In this document: positions 44,966-60,000 of the stretch, piece by piece
How the letters are laid out: the number at the start of each line of letters is the position of its first letter
Position numbering within the stretch: the stretch's first letter is position 1
Assembly (NCBI GenBank): GCA_036444275.1
Contig: JAZGAD010000012.1
Span: 1 to 64,000 of the forward strand
Direction: 5' to 3'
DNA: 64,000 nucleotides
Source: Candidatus Hydrothermarchaeales archaeon
GTDB lineage: Archaea > Hydrothermarchaeota > Hydrothermarchaeia > Hydrothermarchaeales > JAZGAD01
The notes under the pieces: model-generated
The model's database searches: none
Told to the model about the DNA's origin: nothing
What the model saw: only the letters and a program-made list of their open reading frames with translations
Made by a program: the position numbers and the translations under genes

Positions 44966-45039
<74 letters not shown>

Positions 45040-45175
45040 CTCCTGGTTTTACTGTATAAGCCCTACCCTTTAATAGCTAACTTGGAGGTGAAAAGGGCAT
45101 GGGCAAAGAAGACCTCAATGCTTTTCCATCTTAAAAAGCCTGCACGATATAATCAGGACTGAAAAACAGTTGAAC

Positions 45176-50734: not shown

Positions 50735-51694
50735 TTATTTTACCTTTTCAATTTCCTCGATGAAATCCGGGAACAGGAGCTTCAGGGGGCCGCTGTCTTT
50801 GGGAAGCTCGCCAGTTTCGCCGTAGATCAAGGAGGACAGCATTACGTCAGCCGTGGCTGCAGCTGGAAACATCCATGGTGCGCTCTCGATTGGCCCGTAA
50901 AGGAGGAAGTCATTCCATAGTACTCCTAATGCATGAGCAGCGCTATCTACGCCAGCGAAGCCCAGCTTGCCCCACTTCTCTTTCGGTACCTTCCACATAT
51001 CAGTGCCGTTAGCTGGAGCGCAGCCTGCAGGCAAGCCGAACTTCTCTTTCACTCTACGATTAGCTAGAAAAGAAAAGGCACTTGAGGGTATGCTCAGCAC
51101 CGAGGTGTCAACGAGGATATTCTCTACGCCAGCTTCTTTGGCTCTCGGCAGAAGCCTCTCCAGCACTTTCAGCCTACCTTCAGTGGTTTTATCGTCAGGG
51201 TTAAAGCATACCAAGATTGCATTCCTTATTCCAAGCTTTTTCAGCTCCTTAATCTCTTTCTCCAAGTCCTCACTCCACGGTGCTATGCTACTGTAGATTG
51301 CCCTATCCTGTAGCTTCTGCTCTGCAATATACCTCGCTGCTGCCAGCTTGGGCTTTAACTTCCAAATGTCGATGGAAAAGGGCATGTCAGTAATGCTGGT
51401 TACAAAGTCTATATAGGTGCAGATCTCCTCTGGAAAGTTAGCCACTATGTCAAGCATCCCGGGAATACCGGTCTCGTCAGACAACACTTCTTGCCTGTTG
51501 ATGAGCTCTTCAGTGCGTTTCTTATCAAATTCACAGCGTTTCCTGCTCTTTACTACTTTGTGGCCGGCATAGAATATGGTCCCGAACAGCGCAGTGGGAT
51601 GCTCCCCTGGTTGCCCCCCTATCTCTATCCCGCCTATATCGCATACCTTCTGCTTCATTTCGAACTTCAGCTTAAGCATAAATAACCTCACCAT
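50735..51694 (-). CDS. mtrH: MtrH-family methylcorrinoid:tetrahydromethanopterin methyltransferase
   Basis: IGGQPGEHPTAL.GTIFY..H, GLPAGCAPAN, DFLLYGPIE. Confidence 0.9.
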   Translation of the reverse strand: MVRLFMLKLKFEMKQKVCDIGGIEIGGQPGEHPTALFGTIFYAGHKVVKSRKRCEFDKKRTEELINRQEVLSDETGIPGMLDIVANFPEEICTYIDFVTSITDMPFSIDIWKLKPKLAAARYIAEQKLQDRAIYSSIAPWSEDLEKEIKELKKLGIRNAILVCFNPDDKTTEGRLKVLERLLPRAKEAGVENILVDTSVLSIPSSAFSFLANRRVKEKFGLPAGCAPANGTDMWKVPKEKWGKLGFAGVDSAAHALGVLWNDFLLYGPIESAPWMFPAAATADVMLSSLIYGETGELPKDSGPLKLLFPDFIEEIEKVK

Positions 51695-53589
51695 ACGTGC
51701 TTTACATGAGGGAATTCGTCCACCATGTGTGGGAAGTGCATAGCCTGTATGAACTCTGTCTGAAAATCTGGATCAACGGTGAGCTCTATGTAATGTATCC
51801 TCCTAGCCAGATCATTGGCTTCTTCCCTCTTTTTCTTGTTTATGAGGGCTATCCTTGCTCCATCGCCAGCTGCATTCCCAACGGCAAGGACATTTTTCAA
51901 GTCACAGTCCGGGTATAAGCCGATTACCATTGCAGCTTCCTTGTCGATATAGTTCCCAAAGGCGCCAGCTAGGAGCACTTTGTCGACTTTGTCAGTGCCG
52001 TAATGCTTCATCAGAATCTTGGAGCCAGCGTACATAGCACCCTTACCAAGTTGAATAGCTCTTACATCGCCGAGGGTTATGCTTATCTCCTTCCCGGTAG
52101 CACTCTCCTTCTTACCGACTAGCACGAATTCTGGCCCCTCTTTACCCTTCTTGAGCCTCGGTGTATCTATCTCAGTATTGAAGGTTCCATTCTTCCTTAT
52201 AATCCCAGCCTTAAACATCTCTGCTACTCCATCTATTATACCAGAACCGCATATTCCACGAGGCTTCACAATGTCTTCGTCGTCTCCTAGGACTTTGAAT
52301 TGCACCTCATAGTCGGGGTTTATCGTCAAGTGCTCTATGGCTCCTGGAGCCGCGCGCATCCCATGCTTTATATGTGCACCTTCAAAAGCCGGACCAGTTG
52401 CACAGGAAGTGGACAGCAATTTATCCTTGTTTCCAAGGACGATCTCGCCATTGGTGCCTATATCTATAGTTAAGACTACTTTGGACTGCTTATACGGCTC
52501 GGTAGCTATAAGGACACCCACATTGTCAGCGCCTACGAAGCCTGCCTCTATCGGGAGCATGTGGACATTAGCTCCTCTTCCAATCCCTAGTCCCAGTTCT
52601 CTGGCTTTGAGGTCGTAGGAATGATGTATCACGGGTGGAAAAGGCGACAGACCAACGAACTCTGGGTTGAGTCTGAGGAATATGTGGTGCATCGCAGTGT
52701 TGCCCACGACAGTCATCTCTAAGATATCTTCCTGGGATATGCCTATTGCTCCTGCTGTGTTTGCCGCTATCTTATTCAGTCCTTCTATGATAGCAGAGTG
52801 CATCTTCTCTAAGCCATCGTCGTGGGTCATGGCATACGTAATACGGGACATGACATCTTCACCAAAGGCTACTTGGGGATTCATCATGGAATCCAGCGCA
52901 ACTACCTCGCCTGTGTTGATATCGGTAAGATAACCCGCCACAGTGGTTGTGCCGATATCTACAGCTAGCCCATAGCTCTTTTCCACAAGCCCCGGCTGAA
53001 CCGCTATTATCTTATCGCCCCAGGTAGTGACGGTAACCTTCCATTCGCCTTTCCTCAGTACACTTGGGAGCGCCTTCAAAATATCGTAGTCTACGTTCAG
53101 CTTCTCTAGTCCATGTACCTTTTCGAGCTCCCTCGTCAGGCGCTCTAGATCACCTGTAGGATCATCGAGTTTTGCAGGCTCTAATTCCACATAGTACTTC
53201 CGTATCACTGGATCGATGTCTATCACTATCTTTCTAGCCCCTTTCCTTACTATCTGCTTACCCCCCCGGCTCTCCTCAGGGACAAAGAGGAGGATATCGC
53301 CAATAACCTTCGCGGCACAGGAAAGCCTATAATTAGACGCGATTTCTTCTGCTTTCAGCTTCTTTTTTTCCCCTTCCTCAAGCTTAGATAGATTAGCCGA
53401 CCTAGAGTCTATGCCGTATTTCTCGAAAAAGCCCTCTTGAATCACGATCTTGCATTTGCCGCAGGTTTGTTTGCCCCCGCAGATGGATTCTATCTCAACA
53501 CCCAGCTCATGGGCCGCATCTCTGATACTCGTCCCTTCTTCCACCAAGCCTCTTCTTCCAGAGGGCTGGAATATCACAGTATACTCCAT
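51688..53589 (-). CDS. ATP-dependent corrinoid reductive activator (2Fe-2S + ASKHA; RACo/RamA-like)
   Basis: CGGKQTCGKC...RLSC ferredoxin; DIGTTT, FGEDVMSRI, DIGTNGE, GICGSG, AGAFG, GNAAG. Confidence 0.92.
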   Translation of the reverse strand: MEYTVIFQPSGRRGLVEEGTSIRDAAHELGVEIESICGGKQTCGKCKIVIQEGFFEKYGIDSRSANLSKLEEGEKKKLKAEEIASNYRLSCAAKVIGDILLFVPEESRGGKQIVRKGARKIVIDIDPVIRKYYVELEPAKLDDPTGDLERLTRELEKVHGLEKLNVDYDILKALPSVLRKGEWKVTVTTWGDKIIAVQPGLVEKSYGLAVDIGTTTVAGYLTDINTGEVVALDSMMNPQVAFGEDVMSRITYAMTHDDGLEKMHSAIIEGLNKIAANTAGAIGISQEDILEMTVVGNTAMHHIFLRLNPEFVGLSPFPPVIHHSYDLKARELGLGIGRGANVHMLPIEAGFVGADNVGVLIATEPYKQSKVVLTIDIGTNGEIVLGNKDKLLSTSCATGPAFEGAHIKHGMRAAPGAIEHLTINPDYEVQFKVLGDDEDIVKPRGICGSGIIDGVAEMFKAGIIRKNGTFNTEIDTPRLKKGKEGPEFVLVGKKESATGKEISITLGDVRAIQLGKGAMYAGSKILMKHYGTDKVDKVLLAGAFGNYIDKEAAMVIGLYPDCDLKNVLAVGNAAGDGARIALINKKKREEANDLARRIHYIELTVDPDFQTEFIQAMHFPHMVDEFPHVKHVW

Positions 53590-53674
53590 ACATTCTTCTT
53601 TAGCTTACCTTATTAAAGTTTTAATCCCCTATTTCAAAGCTAATTTTAAGTTTAAATCAGGATATTAAAACAAG

Positions 53675-53830
53675 TGCGGACTTGATCCGGGCAGAAAGTC
53701 TCGATAACCCAAACCGAAGTTCAAGTTAGCGGTTCTTTCGTACAAATCCTTACTCCGAAGAGTAACTGATTTGCCGTCCCATCCCTTATCATTGACAAGA
53801 AGATGTTCACAACTCGATCCAAATCCGCAG
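53675..53830 (-). ncRNA. Unidentified structured RNA (~155 nt)
   Basis: Closing stem UGCGGAUUUGG/UCAAGUCCGCA, three internal hairpins, two with C(UUCG)G tetraloops; G-U pairs only on the minus strand; GAAAA-TTATAAATA promoter ~23 nt upstream; T-run downstream. Confidence 0.7.
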
Positions 53831-53909
53831 TATAATATAGTATCTTGAGATATTTATAATTTTCTATAGATGCCCATATAGCCGCCGCGCTACGGCATAG
53901 AAGATGATA

Positions 53910-55502
53910 TTATTGGAGTGCAACTTTTCTCTCCTTAAGTCTTTCATCTACGTCGCTACCGAGCATGCAAGGCGGTCTAGGAATCTTGACAAAGAGCGGG
54001 ACGTCGAAGAGCTCATAGTCCACCAATTTATCCCCTTTTCCAAACCTCCTAATTTTGCCCTTGATCTCCTCTGAGAACTTCTTGTAGAGGAGGTCTCCAA
54101 GTTCAGCTCCCTTGGTCTTGCCATAGATGTCTGTAGAGACATTTCCTATGATGTTCTGATTCACCCTCGACTTGAATTGTTCAGCTCCAAACAAGGCCAT
54201 TCCAATGCTCCTGCCCCTAGCGCTTATATCTACCAATCTAGCCTTGAGGGAGGCAACATCAGGCGATGCGTGAGCCGGTGCATACTTGTTTAATTCGTCC
54301 ATGAATATTATTAGTTTGTCCACCCTGAGCTTCTTGGCTTCTAAGCGCCCTATGAATTCAGTGATCACCTTCTCGAAGACCAGCTTCCTCGGATAGAAAC
54401 CGAGTTGTTGTATATCCACAACCCACACTTCTCTATCCTCCAAGTCATCGTAAGGCAGCTCCAGCACCTCGTCGGCATAGCTTGTTATCAGGCCGCCGTA
54501 CTTGGATTCCAGTCCCTTGAGTTGGTTGTAGAGTTTTCCCCAAGTGGCTTTGTAGCTGCCTTTGACTAGCTCTGTCCACGCCCTGTCGTCTGATAGGAGT
54601 TCTTCCCGCATAAAGTTCAGGATCTGGGAGAAAGAAGTTAGTCTCCTGTCTTTGGACATCCTCTTCAAGTCATAAAAAGCTGTATCCAGCTTCTCCTTCT
54701 GGTCCTGGTCTCCAGCTTTCAGCAGTGATGGAATGAAGTCTTCTACTTCTAAGTAGCCCCATCTGAAGGGTTCTACCTGCTTTCGCAACGACCTTGCCCC
54801 AGATAATATGTCTAGAGGGGCGAAGAATCTAGCTTTAAAGGCATTCGGTTCTATCCCACAGTTACTGTATACCTCCAGGTCCTCTATTGTAAGCCTCGAT
54901 GAATCCATATCCACGTATAACAGGTCATCGCTCTTTATATTGAATAAAATACATGCCACTTTGGATTTCGAGTGGGTGAAGATAGAGCTCAGAAGGAACA
55001 GTACAGTTGAGGTCTTCGTGCCGAGGCCAGACATCCCTGAGATGTTGATATGTGCCCCTTCATATCCTAAGATGTAGTTCTCGTCTATACGCACCGGTAT
55101 TCTAGCTCCATCGGTGTTGATGAATACACCAACAGGGATATCACATCCCTCTAGGTTGAAGAGTTCTTCTAGTTCCTTTTTTGAGGGATAATAGACCTTT
55201 CCATGCCTTAGAGGCCTGTCCAGGTCCTGCTTCAGTACCCTTGCTTTGCATACTATGACCGACTGCTCCTCGTTAGGAATCTTGAGTGCTGGATCGCCTC
55301 CTCTGGAGAGTTGATGCATCAGGAAGTCCTCTACCTCTGAGTAGCTCTCCATAGCCTCAATAGCTCCGTAAACTTGTTTACCGTCAGCATCCACCCTAAC
55401 TACAGAGCCTACCGCTACAGTATCCTCCTCATTGGGAATCCAGAAATGAAACTCCTCAGGCGTATTCGGCCTGTTCTTGGTTCCAACTACTGTCCCGATC
55501 AT
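53910..55502 (-). CDS. HerA-family (HAS-barrel + DUF87) ATPase
   Basis: N-terminal beta-barrel, HINISGMSGLGTKTS Walker A variant, IIFMDELNKYAP Walker B, RGRSIG. Confidence 0.85.
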   Translation of the reverse strand: MIGTVVGTKNRPNTPEEFHFWIPNEEDTVAVGSVVRVDADGKQVYGAIEAMESYSEVEDFLMHQLSRGGDPALKIPNEEQSVIVCKARVLKQDLDRPLRHGKVYYPSKKELEELFNLEGCDIPVGVFINTDGARIPVRIDENYILGYEGAHINISGMSGLGTKTSTVLFLLSSIFTHSKSKVACILFNIKSDDLLYVDMDSSRLTIEDLEVYSNCGIEPNAFKARFFAPLDILSGARSLRKQVEPFRWGYLEVEDFIPSLLKAGDQDQKEKLDTAFYDLKRMSKDRRLTSFSQILNFMREELLSDDRAWTELVKGSYKATWGKLYNQLKGLESKYGGLITSYADEVLELPYDDLEDREVWVVDIQQLGFYPRKLVFEKVITEFIGRLEAKKLRVDKLIIFMDELNKYAPAHASPDVASLKARLVDISARGRSIGMALFGAEQFKSRVNQNIIGNVSTDIYGKTKGAELGDLLYKKFSEEIKGKIRRFGKGDKLVDYELFDVPLFVKIPRPPCMLGSDVDERLKERKVALQ

Positions 55503-55511
55503 GGTATCGCC

Positions 55512-56528
55512 TCAGATAGCTCGAAGGGTCGCCTTCAAGTGCCGAATGGATGGGATCTGGGTTCGCAGGTAGTCCTCGCAGATTTGAATCGGGTATATTT
55601 GCCTGTCCCACCTAGAGCAGTTGGCGCGTATGCACTTCTCAGCTATCAGCCAAGAAGAGAATTTGTCAGCCGAGATCGTTGGTCCAGTATATTCAACCCT
55701 CAAGAGCCCCATTTCAGGATAATGGGGCGCATGAATCCGCAGGTAGAAAGAATTCACCTTGTATCTAGGGGTACCTTCCCTCAGTTGCATGGAGAAGACC
55801 ATGCTCCGGTAGTACTCGGGCATGCTCCATACCATCTGTTGGATCTCGGGGTACGCCTCTTGGAGATATATTGTAGCATGCGTCTTTATCACGCCCACTA
55901 CCTGTTCTGTCTTCATAGAGCCGAAGATATTGCCATCTTTAATGAGCACGTCCCCCCTAGGCTGTTCAGCGATGAACCTGTGCATCAGGTCATGCTCTAT
56001 TTCCTGTCGCAGCGCCCTTGACTTTATCATAGCCTTGCTCCTGATTTCGTTGAGGTCCCAGCATTTATCAGCTCCTGTATCAGCTAGACCCTCGATGTCT
56101 CCCCATGCCTCGTAGAGAAAGCTTGGTACTAAGATCTTGTTCCTGTAGAGAGCTTTTAGGGGTGCGAATTTATCGCAGTGCCTTCTATGCATTATCACTG
56201 CGCCTGAGAAATGGAGGAAAATAGGCACCTTGAATCCATTGAAGTCGTAGTGCTTCCAGAGCACGGTCCTCTGCACGCCGTCCATGAAGTAACTGAGCTT
56301 GCTCTCACCGCGGTATCCATCTTGTACCCTGTGTACGCCTGGGATCTCTAGAGGCTGGACCTCTATATTCTCAGGTAGATGCAGGCTACTGGGGAATTCT
56401 TGCAACTCTAGCTCCATAAACACAGTAGGGCTAAGACTGTCAGAGGTGGCTCTTTCGAATTCCCTAGCGCTCTCAAACCAATCCATCCTTCTTTCCATGA
56501 ACCATAACCCTTTTGCCGATGGTATCAT
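55512..56528 (-). CDS. NurA-like (RNase H/PIWI-fold) nuclease
   Basis: YFMDGVQRT, LIKDGNI, VGVIKTH, FYLR, PIQICEDYL; operonic with the HerA-like ATPase. Confidence 0.75.
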   Translation of the reverse strand: MIPSAKGLWFMERRMDWFESAREFERATSDSLSPTVFMELELQEFPSSLHLPENIEVQPLEIPGVHRVQDGYRGESKLSYFMDGVQRTVLWKHYDFNGFKVPIFLHFSGAVIMHRRHCDKFAPLKALYRNKILVPSFLYEAWGDIEGLADTGADKCWDLNEIRSKAMIKSRALRQEIEHDLMHRFIAEQPRGDVLIKDGNIFGSMKTEQVVGVIKTHATIYLQEAYPEIQQMVWSMPEYYRSMVFSMQLREGTPRYKVNSFYLRIHAPHYPEMGLLRVEYTGPTISADKFSSWLIAEKCIRANCSRWDRQIYPIQICEDYLRTQIPSIRHLKATLRAI

Positions 56529-57003
56529 TAAACTTGTCCTAGGGCGGCTGAAAAGTGAAAAGTAATAAACATGAACGATAAAAATAGAAAAACATGGGCT
56601 TTTCGACCGAAATAAACGGAATCAATATCCAAAATAAACGAACCTTGAGGGGTAATAAGAGTGGTTGTAAAATTATATATTGCTCTAAATAGCATGTATA
56701 CTAGACGTTGAGACTCATGAAAAATCCTTCAATCCAATATACTTCTCAAATCCGAAATAAGTTGCAAATAGAAATCCCTTATTCAAGGATTATCGGGGGA
56801 GTATAGAATGAGAAATATAATCCACTTGGGATCGATACAACCCCTGAGGAGGTTCAATGGCTGCTTGTTCAGCGGTGAGGATGTTCCGGAGCTGGATGTC
56901 TCCCTTAACACTGACAACTATCCTACCCAAGAGTTCTCTGTAGCCAGACCTATGTATCAAAAGGGACCCGTGCCGACCATAAAGTTAGTTGGGGAGTAGA
57001 AAC

Positions 57004-60000
57004 ATGGAGTTTAGATATAGTGTAGCCTTCGTCATCTTGATTCCCACCCTCATATTTGGTCTCATGTATTATGCCTCTCTGCCTCCAGGGGTTCAGGGTG
57101 ATGTGGGTCGTGCTGTTGAGCGTCCTATTATATTGGAGGCTGCTGTTGAGCCTTTCAAGGTTCTCCCGGGAGACACTATGTTGGTCACGGCAGAAGTGGC
57201 TGATGATGTAGGAATAGCGGGTGTGATGGCTGATATGGGTGGTATTGAGTCTATTGATCTCGTTTTGGTTAATGGCACGATTCATCGGGGTGTTTGGCGG
57301 GGTGAGTGGTTTGTGCATGATACCGAGGTCAGGGAGTATAATGCGACTATCACGGCGGTAAACATCCTGGGAGAAAGCACTTCTCAAAACGTCGCCTGGT
57401 CCGACCCCATTGAGAACCTTTCTGCAACTGTAGAAACTCTCTACGTGCTCACCTCCCAGATGAGCATTACGGGATGCACTCTTACAACCGAGAGGGAAAG
57501 CCACGGCCCCAGTGATAACATCTCTGCATCGGTTGATGGAAAATGGGTTTCAGCCGGCTGCAGGTGGGAGTTTGAGATGGATAATGCAACGCTGACCGAC
57601 AACACCTTTGTCAGTGCAAATATAACCATAAGGCATTATGCATCCTCGGGGTACGACAATGATATAGCATTACTGCAGTACTCGATGGACGGTGGTCTGA
57701 ACTGGGATATTCTGGAGACGTTTAATTCCTCGAATCCCATTCCCTTAACACCCATCACGAAGACCTATGCCGCTCCCCTGATAACTTCCTGGGAGCATGT
57801 AAGCAATACTATAGTCCGCCTAGTTGCTGAGGAGAAGACGGGCGGCGTTGACACTTGGACATGGTATGTTGATTTCATAAAGCTCGATGTCAACTTTAGT
57901 CAGACCGCCCCTCTTGCCAAGAGAGTCTTCCATGTTCACGACGGCCAGGTGAGCAGCAATCTTACATCCGGTAGCGGGAAAGGGCATGCCCGCTCAGCCA
58001 TAATAGTCTGGAATCGCAACGACACAAGTATGAGCTTCACGAACATCAGCGATACCTACAGAGACCCCATCATCAACTCCCTTAACGGCTCCAGTCCACT
58101 AGGTGCTACCCTCTCCGGCAACAAGACAGTGGCATGGGCATCTCAGAGCATCTCTGCAAAGAATCTCAGCGTCTTTTCTTACTACTGGTACCGCACAACG
58201 ACCAGTTACCCCGGCGGGAATGTAACCACCAACGCGACCGATGATGAGGGAAGCGGTAAAAGGATTTATGGAGATATAAATACCTCAGCTGGTCCTGCAG
58301 CAAACATAATCACGCAAATCCAGGACAATATATCTATGAGATGGGACTATGGGGTGTGGAATGTCATCCAGAACAAAACCAGGAACTTTTCCATACGCCT
58401 TGCTACGTGGCAGTGCTCGGCATCACTGAGTACCAGCACTACCCCTGTGCTCTGGGTCAGGGTTCCCGGGGGATGGAGCAACGTAAGTGGCGCAGGCTGG
58501 ACGATCTTCGGAAGCGTCGACGAAGGCTGGACATTGAGCAGGAGGGATATGCCTGATGCCTTTAACGATACTAGCTGTGGCAACGGTGCCTACTCAACGG
58601 ATTGGAATTTCACCGCAACCTCTCCCTCAGTATCTGAAGCCACCCCCTACGTATTTGACACAAGGCTTGACTACACTGACAGCAATAGCAGGATTCACCA
58701 TACAGTTGGGGAGCACCTCGTCCAAGTTGTCATAGATGCTGAGAAGCCTACGTTTGACGGTAATACGGCTATAAACACTACTGTTGCGGGTAGTGGTGGT
58801 GTGGTGAAGCTTAATGAGACCGTCAACGACAACGTGGGGGTTGAGAGTGTCTGGTTTACGGTGAACGGCACCAATTATACCTTCAACGGCTCCTCTGGCA
58901 ATGAGTACTATTTGCTGTGGACTTGCAGCGCCAATGAAAATTATTCTTGGAGTGCGATATATGCCAAGGATTACGCGGACAACTTCAACAGCGCTACGGT
59001 TGACCCGGCTTTGAATTGGACCTGCGACTTAACACCGCCCACCGTGGCAAATACCAGTGTCGACCTGACCAGTGTCCCCCGTGATACCCTGATTTGTGTG
59101 AATCACACCGCCAACGATACCTGGGGTAGTTTGAATGAGACTTGGGTCATGATCACCTATCCGGGTGCTGAGAATACTTCGAACTTCACTACCAGCGACA
59201 CGGGCCCGTACTGTGCTGGTGAGGCTGACGACGGCTGGTACGGCACAGAGATCAACGTGGGCAACACGCCGGGCAATTTGACTGTAAATACGTCTTACGC
59301 CAACGACACCGTGGCCAACCTCGGATTCCAAACTCCATTTCCAAACCTAACCGTGGAGGTAATCGGCGTCATGGTGCCCTCTATTAGAGTCTACAGGGAG
59401 CAACCCACCTACGTTGGACCAGACAAGAATATGAGCATCAGATTCTTCATCTGGAACGATTTAAATGCGACGCGCGGCACTGACAGCACGACCCTCATAG
59501 AAGACTACGACGATGCTTGGAGTGGTATTGACCCCTGCTGCGGGGGCACTGACAACGGAACGCACGTCATCTGGAACTTGGGTTCTTTGGGTATAGACGA
59601 CGTGACCACCGTCTACTACAACATTACTGCTAACACAGAGCAAGGGACCTTCTCGGCATATACGAATTACACTTACGGTGTTAACTGGAACGAGACTACG
59701 CCGGACTCCTACAACACCAGCGTCTCCAGCGGCGGTGCATACTTCGATGCGGAGCTTGACTTGATAGCTGGAGGTATGTTGGATAGGACTATTTCGAATG
59801 GCACCAACTACACCGCGAGAATCACCCTCAAGAACATAGGAAATGCTTCCACCGACTACTATATGGTTCAGTACTACTGGATATTCAATAAGTCCGGCTG
59901 GAATGTCTCTGTCCTCTCAGGTTGCGATCAGTCTAAAGTATTCGACTACAACTCTAGCCATAAGGCTCTGGAATGCAACATCACTTCCCGCATCAACCCC

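Follow-up and report, generated by a model that had tools for sequence, protein, structure and literature searches.

A predicted stand-alone structured RNA gene and its homologues in the archaeal order Hydrothermarchaeales

A short spacer in the 64,000-nt stretch of archaeal DNA analyzed here (referred to below as the window) lies on the minus strand between a gene for HerA and the genes for the corrinoid activator RACo and MtrH. An earlier note, made from the sequence, had proposed that this spacer encodes a structured RNA with its own promoter, and had suggested a functional link to a NurA/HerA pair or a cobalamin-related role. The locus therefore raises the question of whether it holds an RNA gene in its own right or a leader of the genes that follow, and of what such an RNA might do.

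Fold, strand and relation to annotated RNAs

All the pairings proposed for an RNA of about 155 nt are present on the minus strand at 53675-53829 (Table 1). The fold is closed by a stem of 11 bp, which is followed by a short second stem and by three hairpins; C(UUCG)G caps two of the hairpins. The MFE of the RNA core is -57.4 kcal/mol, compared to a mean of -41.2 ± 4.1 kcal/mol for 200 dinucleotide shuffles (z -3.96), and none of the 200 shuffles matched the fold energy of the minus-strand RNA. The plus strand of the same locus folds much more weakly (MFE -37.2, z -2.1, 7 of 200 shuffles as good), which confirms the assignment of the RNA to the minus strand. No ORF of at least 40 aa overlaps positions 53675-53865 on either strand. 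The G+C content of the RNA is 46%, compared to 25 to 35% in the flanking spacer.

Table 1. Positions in the window of the RNA, its helices and the signals around it
Feature	Position	Strand	Basis or remark
RNA core, first to last P1 base, 155 nt; four-way junction closed by P1	53675..53829	-	fold, covariance model matches, covariation
P1, 5' strand, UGCGGAUUUGG	53819..53829	-	fold and covariation
P1, 3' strand, UCAAGUCCGCA, pairs with UGCGGAUUUGG	53675..53685	-	fold and covariation
P1b, short second stem between P1 and the junction		-	fold
P2 arm, hairpin	53775..53811	-	AAU loop in the window copy; UUCG-like loop in many relatives
P3 arm, C(UUCG)G loop at 53756-53759, small internal loop	53742..53774	-
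P4 arm, conserved GAAAG/CUUUC base, two internal loops, upper stem	53694..53739	-
UUCG of the C(UUCG)G loop of the P4 upper stem	53715..53718	-
BRE/TATA promoter element, GAAAATTATAAATA	53851..53864	-	sequence and position common to the RNA family
3' tail CUUG, then T-run (TTTT, 53667-53670), then AAT	53661..53674	-	likely archaeal oligo-T terminator
Separate TATA-like box of the downstream RACo gene, TTTAATAA	53610..53617	-	putative promoter

The earlier note had recommended a comparison with Rfam. At gathering scores, Rfam 15 (4227 models) had a single match in the whole window, a tRNA-Phe (GAA) at 44966-45040 on the plus strand. When the region 53500-54000 was compared at E<=10, three chance hits were obtained, none of which fell on the RNA, and 20 other members of the RNA family (see below) gave no hit on the RNA at E<=5. 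The view that the RNA is not a tRNA, 5S, SRP or RNase P RNA was borne out. ARAGORN found no tRNA at the locus, and the other three RNAs of the same genome are located on other contigs: the RNase P RNA at C39:17535-17832 (201 bits), the SRP RNA at C53:86491-86807 (209 bits) and the 5S RNA at C28:80221-80341 (86 bits). Small nucleolar-type guide RNAs are recognized by RUGAUGA and CUGA motifs (C/D box), by an ACA box with a pseudouridylation pocket (H/ACA) and by the K-turn. No snoRNA model of Rfam matched the RNA (region at E<=10; 20 members at E<=5), and by eye we saw no conserved C/D or ACA boxes in the family alignment. In the literature reached by lexical searches, which cannot prove an RNA unpublished, we found no account of an RNA of this kind.

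Homologues, covariation and family architecture

Both a search for homologues in related genomes and a covariation analysis had been advised in the earlier note, and both were informative. Using blastn, we found one relative only of the window RNA among 61 genomes. It lies in a genome of the same taxonomic family (G001), is 71% identical and has the same architecture (MFE -74.1 kcal/mol, z -6.7). Because blastn gave only this relative, covariance models (CMs) were needed. The first of these, R1, was built from the window sequence alone and gave full-length matches (model positions 1-161) in 9 of 35 genomes of the same order. CMs R2 and R3 were rebuilt from 10 and then 24 copies, and with the rebuilt models we detected 26 full-length copies in 21 of the 35 genomes, at one or two per genome. 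A minus-strand match on locus L006, which was the reverse of a true copy, was dropped before R2 was built. Another copy (L027, from genome G022) aligns poorly in P4 and was excluded from the 24 rows that served to build R3 and to count covariation. A MAFFT alignment of two copies put the helices out of register, and CM-guided alignments were used instead.

Five genomes, including that of the window (G000), contain two copies each. By blastn, the window RNA is single-copy in its own genome; the covariance model revealed a diverged paralogue on another contig, at G000:C9:1914-2077 on the plus strand (locus L028, 1501-1664; 98 bits with R3). The paralogue has genes for a ParA/MinD-like ATPase and an OB-fold protein as neighbors. 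In a tree of the 24 copies, a long branch leads to the window copy and its orthologue in G001. The deep branches of this tree are not resolved, so we claim no order of duplication. In a further genome (G021, a 70%-complete MAG), two short contigs (L009 and L012) carry near-identical copies with near-identical flanks, and this pair may stem from strain heterogeneity within the bin instead of a genuine duplication.

The RNA is present in taxonomic families f1, f2 (genus g18 only), f4, f5, f6, f9 and f10 of the order. The CM search did not find it in f3, f7, f8 or two f2 genera, several genomes of which are 96 to 99% complete. In total, 14 of the 35 genomes of the order had no match; some of these are incomplete, and several are 96 to 99% complete. 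In the genomes without a match, therefore, the RNA is either dispensable or too diverged to detect. Outside the order, the CM search did not find the RNA in the 3 other genomes of the class and phylum. Searches across more than 40 genomes were run under Infernal's stricter filters, with which weak relatives could be missed; under these filters, 133 genomes of another archaeal phylum gave 0 matches, and 113 genomes of other archaeal phyla gave no true match and one low-complexity false hit. The hit obtained outside the phylum (G076, 30.7 bits) was rejected, as it is a purine/pyrimidine low-complexity sequence with a z of -1.4 and without the signatures of the family. A pattern scan of metagenomes gave 56 matches, of which 3 were true members and 53 were due to chance.

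We then counted pairs in the 24-copy alignment. In this alignment, 89.2% of cells hold standard pairs, a count that is favored by the fitting of CM alignments to the model structure, compared to 67.8% after column shuffles (0 of 500 reached the observed value) and 31 to 47% when the partners were slid by 1 to 3 columns. These controls reduce the concern about the fitted alignments and do not remove it. Fifty-four of the 60 pairs change on both sides while pairing is kept. Such changes are seen in 12 of 14 pairs of the helix that includes P1 (94.9% of cells paired), in 10 of 11 pairs of P2, in 11 of 13 pairs of P3, where 22 of 24 copies have the C-G that closes the loop, and in all 10 pairs of the upper stem of P4, the base helix of which has 98.3% of its cells paired. 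RNAalifold, applied to a 10-copy alignment, independently predicted the same helices. In view of the controls and of the independent folds of single sequences, a real conserved structure is very likely. A crude scan of the unpaired columns for further covarying pairs or pseudoknots gave scattered noise only.

Members of the family are 148 to 170 nt long. In the consensus, the 11 bp of P1 start with a conserved UGCGG/CCGCA, and a 2x2 internal loop separates P1 from a P1b of 4 to 5 bp. The stem leads into a four-way junction with short joining strands and three arms, the lengths of which are fixed and the tips of which usually carry UUCG-type tetraloops. P2 is a hairpin with bulges that often ends in C(UUCG)G. 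P3 has about 13 bp, a small internal loop and a CUUCGG cap, and P4 leads from a 5-bp GAAAG/CUUUC base through two internal loops to an upper stem of 10 bp with a CUUCGG cap. The 3' end has the consensus CGCACUU, followed by T-runs. In the consensus of the 24 copies, nearly all conserved bases lie in helices or tetraloops; no unpaired region forms a conserved core, and very few unpaired bases are conserved at all.

This distribution of conserved bases bears on the possibility that the RNA is catalytic or senses a ligand, either as a self-cleaving ribozyme with a four-way junction, of the hairpin or twister-sister type, or as a trans-acting aptamer. The junction itself is present, the internal loops of P3 and P4 could dock, an A-rich internal loop on the 3' side of P3 is semi-conserved and the fold is very stable. 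However, known classes have at least 10 invariant unpaired bases, and the RNA family has almost none. No ribozyme or riboswitch family of Rfam 15 matched, and the occurrence of one or two copies per genome behind a dedicated promoter is unlike the repeat or retroelement pattern of most self-cleavers. We consider a catalytic or ligand-sensing RNA very improbable.

Transcription signals and neighboring genes

The BRE/TATA element named in the earlier note as the promoter of the RNA is located as expected, with its TATA centered about 24 to 27 nt ahead of the first base of P1. Between -38 and -15, 25 of 28 copies of the family match TTTATATA at 6 or more of its 8 positions, compared to 6 of 28 in a control window. 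Similarly, the proposed T-run after the last stem is present in the window and has counterparts in the family: in 22 of 29 copies, a run of T4 or longer lies no more than 14 nt past the model end. Judged by sequence signals, the locus is thus a stand-alone archaeal ncRNA gene, with its own BRE/TATA at about -25, an oligo-T end and varying neighbors. From the same signals we infer that the RNA is transcribed, where its 5' and 3' ends lie and how abundant it might be.

Flanks were annotated for 24 of the 26 copies. The genes next to the RNA lie in both orientations and code for RACo, a HEAT-repeat protein, BioY (convergent), topoisomerase VI subunit A, PIN, JAB, ArgZ-like and DUF4416 proteins, an aquaporin, a radical-SAM protein and others. 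Across the 24 annotated copies, no single gene is a constant neighbor of the RNA. Topoisomerase VI subunit A is encoded just upstream on the same strand at L007, L017 and L029 (families f4, f5 and f1, respectively); this adjacency probably reflects ancestral gene order and not a link in function. Two loci have other RNA genes within about 1.3 kb of the RNA: a 5S rRNA and two intron-length tRNA matches at L005 (197-767), and three tRNAs at L030 (126-500).

In the window, the RNA lies on the same strand as the RACo and mtrH genes (51688-53589 and 50735-51694, both on the minus strand), 85 nt upstream of the RACo ATG. This arrangement could point to a leader or riboswitch acting in cis, cobalamin-related or otherwise, through which RACo-mtrH would be controlled by termination or read-through at the T-run, with the closing stem and the T-run serving as an attenuator. 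The order of RNA and RACo is kept in the one other genome of the taxonomic family, where the upstream gene differs. However, that genome (G001) and the window account for all the cases, 2 of 24 annotated copies, in which RACo follows the RNA; elsewhere the downstream gene differs or is convergent. Conversely, among 80 RACo loci from other genomes, one carries the RNA within 1.5 kb, and it is a G001-like record. In line with what the earlier note had pointed out, RACo has a TATA-like box of its own (Table 1), for which a promoter role is predicted. Its center lies about 24 nt ahead of the ATG at 53589, a distance that would fit a leaderless mRNA. Moreover, no Cobalamin or other riboswitch model matched (window at E<=10; 20 members at E<=5), and almost no unpaired base is conserved, unlike in ligand pockets. 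Because the neighbors vary and nearly all copies have their own TATA and T-runs, we favor a stand-alone ncRNA over a leader, as had been proposed, and one that would act in trans. The chance that the RNA is a leader of RACo-mtrH appears very small, and the cobalamin-related role suggested for it loses its footing with the rarity of RACo or mtrH beside the RNA and with the scarcity of conserved unpaired bases.

Beyond the sister genome (71% identity), the closest relatives of RACo are bacterial (Anaerolineae/Chloroflexota, 57 to 63% identity), and those from Bathyarchaeia, at about 45 to 50% identity, rank behind them. This pattern hints at a transfer between domains.

On the other side of the RNA, the earlier note had placed a nurA-herA pair. 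The herA part of this label stands, since the product of 53910-55502 (530 aa) matches a solved HerA structure (7f6d_B, E 1.2e-25) and, weakly, the HAS-barrel model of Pfam. The nurA part is not verified, as the 338-aa ORF upstream of HerA (55512-56528, minus strand) had no match in Pfam, NCBIfam, PADLOC or PDB sequences. Farther away, about 3 kb from the RNA, a 184-aa ORF (56950-57504, minus strand) gave weak Cas12f/TnpB-like matches in PADLOC (E 0.003 to 0.004) and may be a TnpB-like fragment.

A position just downstream of HerA and its partner without a family match could suggest a mobile or defense RNA, that is, a MITE, a retron msr-msd, a guide RNA of TnpB or IscB, or an RNA that works with the neighboring HerA pair. 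The pairing of the two ends of the RNA, as in retron ncRNAs, and the weak TnpB-like hits of the 184-aa ORF (E 0.003) would point the same way. In contrast, HerA precedes the RNA in the window only, which is 1 of 24 annotated copies, and the link to NurA/HerA is not sustained. Nor did we see the many dispersed copies that, according to the earlier note, would indicate a MITE: the genome of the window has just two diverged copies, and other genomes have one or two. The flanking ORFs of the 24 copies included no reverse transcriptase, TnpB or IscB, positions are stable within taxonomic families and the promoter is conserved in nearly all copies. Copy number and context have already largely refuted a mobile or defense RNA, which is now hardly credible.

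We rate the family as new because neither Rfam 15 nor the literature searches gave anything like it. Taken together, we put a probability of about 0.8 on the reading that window positions 53675-53829 on the minus strand are a stand-alone structured RNA gene of about 155 to 165 nt, with its own BRE/TATA and an oligo-T end, that belongs to a previously undescribed RNA family.

An additional element of about 50 nt is found ahead of the BRE in 22 of the 26 copies (e.g., L009, 114-162). Its consensus, TnCAnnnnTTCCAnAGGAAnCAnAGGAAGnnAAGGTnGnGnAAT, consists of GGAA-type repeats at 9-nt spacing. The element is missing from the window copy and from its orthologue in G001 and is present at the C9 paralogue in the genome of the window. 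Using an nhmmer profile of the element and promoter, we recovered in that genome the C9 paralogue (E 9e-9) and two to three other sites, among them C53:16896-16954 (E 8e-5) and C33:51262-51313 (E 7e-4). The C33 site lies ahead of a 66-aa Cys-rich ORF that has no Pfam match. The stretch downstream of the C53 site is short, intergenic and not notably structured (z -1.1), and a blastn search with this site gave nothing conserved, its one match being 26 nt inside a coding sequence of G007. IUPAC patterns for the element were either too insensitive or too unspecific. The presence of the element in most copies suggests control by a dedicated transcription factor, and the element is a putative binding site that suggests a small regulon. 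The window copy may be regulated differently, or it may be drifting.

A promoter that looks regulated, with the GGAA-repeat element in 22 of 26 copies, would also suit a small RNA that acts in trans by base pairing through its junction strands or its U-rich 3' tail, possibly with an Sm-like protein. Several of the 3' tails have the form A-U(3-4)-(A)-GG, which would make them candidate Sm sites, and the length is typical of archaeal sRNAs. However, all three loops are inert UUCG-type tetraloops, no unpaired run of at least 6 conserved bases is available as a seed and the U-rich tail is equally well explained as an oligo-T terminator. In addition, seed-based sRNAs do not usually combine helices of fixed length with sequences that covary freely. 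We regard a base-pairing sRNA as rather improbable.

Possible function and comparison with known RNAs

The anatomy of the RNA suggests how it might work. According to our model, the RNA would act in trans, offering one or more proteins a rigid scaffold or decoy that they would recognize by its shape. We favor this reading because the loops are inert tetraloops and almost no unpaired base is conserved, because the lengths of the helices are kept while their sequences drift, and because the conserved sequence sits in the paired terminal stem and in the P4 base beside the junction. The proposal is tentative; it takes the largest single share of our belief, which still falls short of even odds, and a sizeable share is left for a role outside all the readings considered here.

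A more specific and rather unlikely variant would make the RNA a subunit or regulator of an undescribed, order-specific ribonucleoprotein, with a dedicated transcription factor that turns on the RNA by way of the GGAA-repeat element. The window copy would then be a diverged paralogue that has escaped from this control.

To our knowledge, few structured ncRNA families have been described in archaea beyond the universal RNAs and the guide sRNAs, and almost none in uncultured lineages. The present family also has uncultured hosts and occurs in a single order, which limits its value. The comparative support is unusually clean, with full-length matches, 54 of 60 covarying pairs, and promoter and terminator at fixed positions. 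The simple, rigid architecture suits structural work, and the common upstream element points to a small regulon. The consensus model can be used to annotate MAGs and, by phylogenetic profiling, to look for a protein partner. The analysis also corrects a tempting wrong reading, namely that the RNA works for the HerA or corrinoid genes beside it.

Among known RNAs, the cobalamin riboswitch (RF00174 and variants) is similar in that both are multi-helix junction RNAs, and in the window the RNA precedes the corrinoid-related genes RACo and MtrH. It differs in that the present RNA matches no model of it and has no conserved unpaired core such as the B12 box. Furthermore, the RNA is linked to corrinoid genes only in the taxonomic family of the window. 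The RNA also has a likely terminator of its own, and RACo a separate putative promoter.

The Y RNAs and the bacterial YrlA, which are bound by Ro60, have a similar outline. Like these, the RNA has a long stem formed by its 5' and 3' ends, with an internal loop and a multi-helix module on top, as well as a U-rich 3' tail, one or two copies per genome and a presumed role as a protein scaffold. Unlike these, it has no Y_RNA match in Rfam, and no Ro60/TROVE protein turned up in its phylum: a search for PF05731 gave hits in 0 of 38 genomes of the phylum, and a control search found the domain in Deinococcus and Bacteroides. The RNA therefore does not belong to a Y-RNA system.

Klein, Misulovin and Eddy reportedly described in 2002 the RNAs HgcC, HgcE, HgcF and HgcG as G+C-rich islands in the A+T-rich spacers of Methanocaldococcus and Pyrococcus. 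The Hgc RNAs share with the window RNA a stand-alone gene of about 100 to 200 nt, an archaeal promoter of its own, an oligo-T end and a very stable fold, and the window RNA, too, is richer in G+C than the spacer around it. However, the window RNA matches none of the Hgc families in Rfam even at E<=10, forms a four-way junction with three tetraloop-capped arms and comes from another taxon.

Bacterial 6S RNA, like other ncRNAs that sequester proteins, offers a parallel in the proposed mode of action only. It is a stand-alone, highly structured RNA that acts on a protein and not by base pairing, and its shape is kept more than its sequence. It differs in structure, being a long irregular duplex with a central bubble rather than a four-way junction, and there is no homology between the two; we know of no archaeal counterpart of 6S. 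If the RNA does act in an order-specific ribonucleoprotein, it would be functionally like 6S or Y RNA, evolutionarily unrelated to either, and would represent a new class of archaeal riboregulator.
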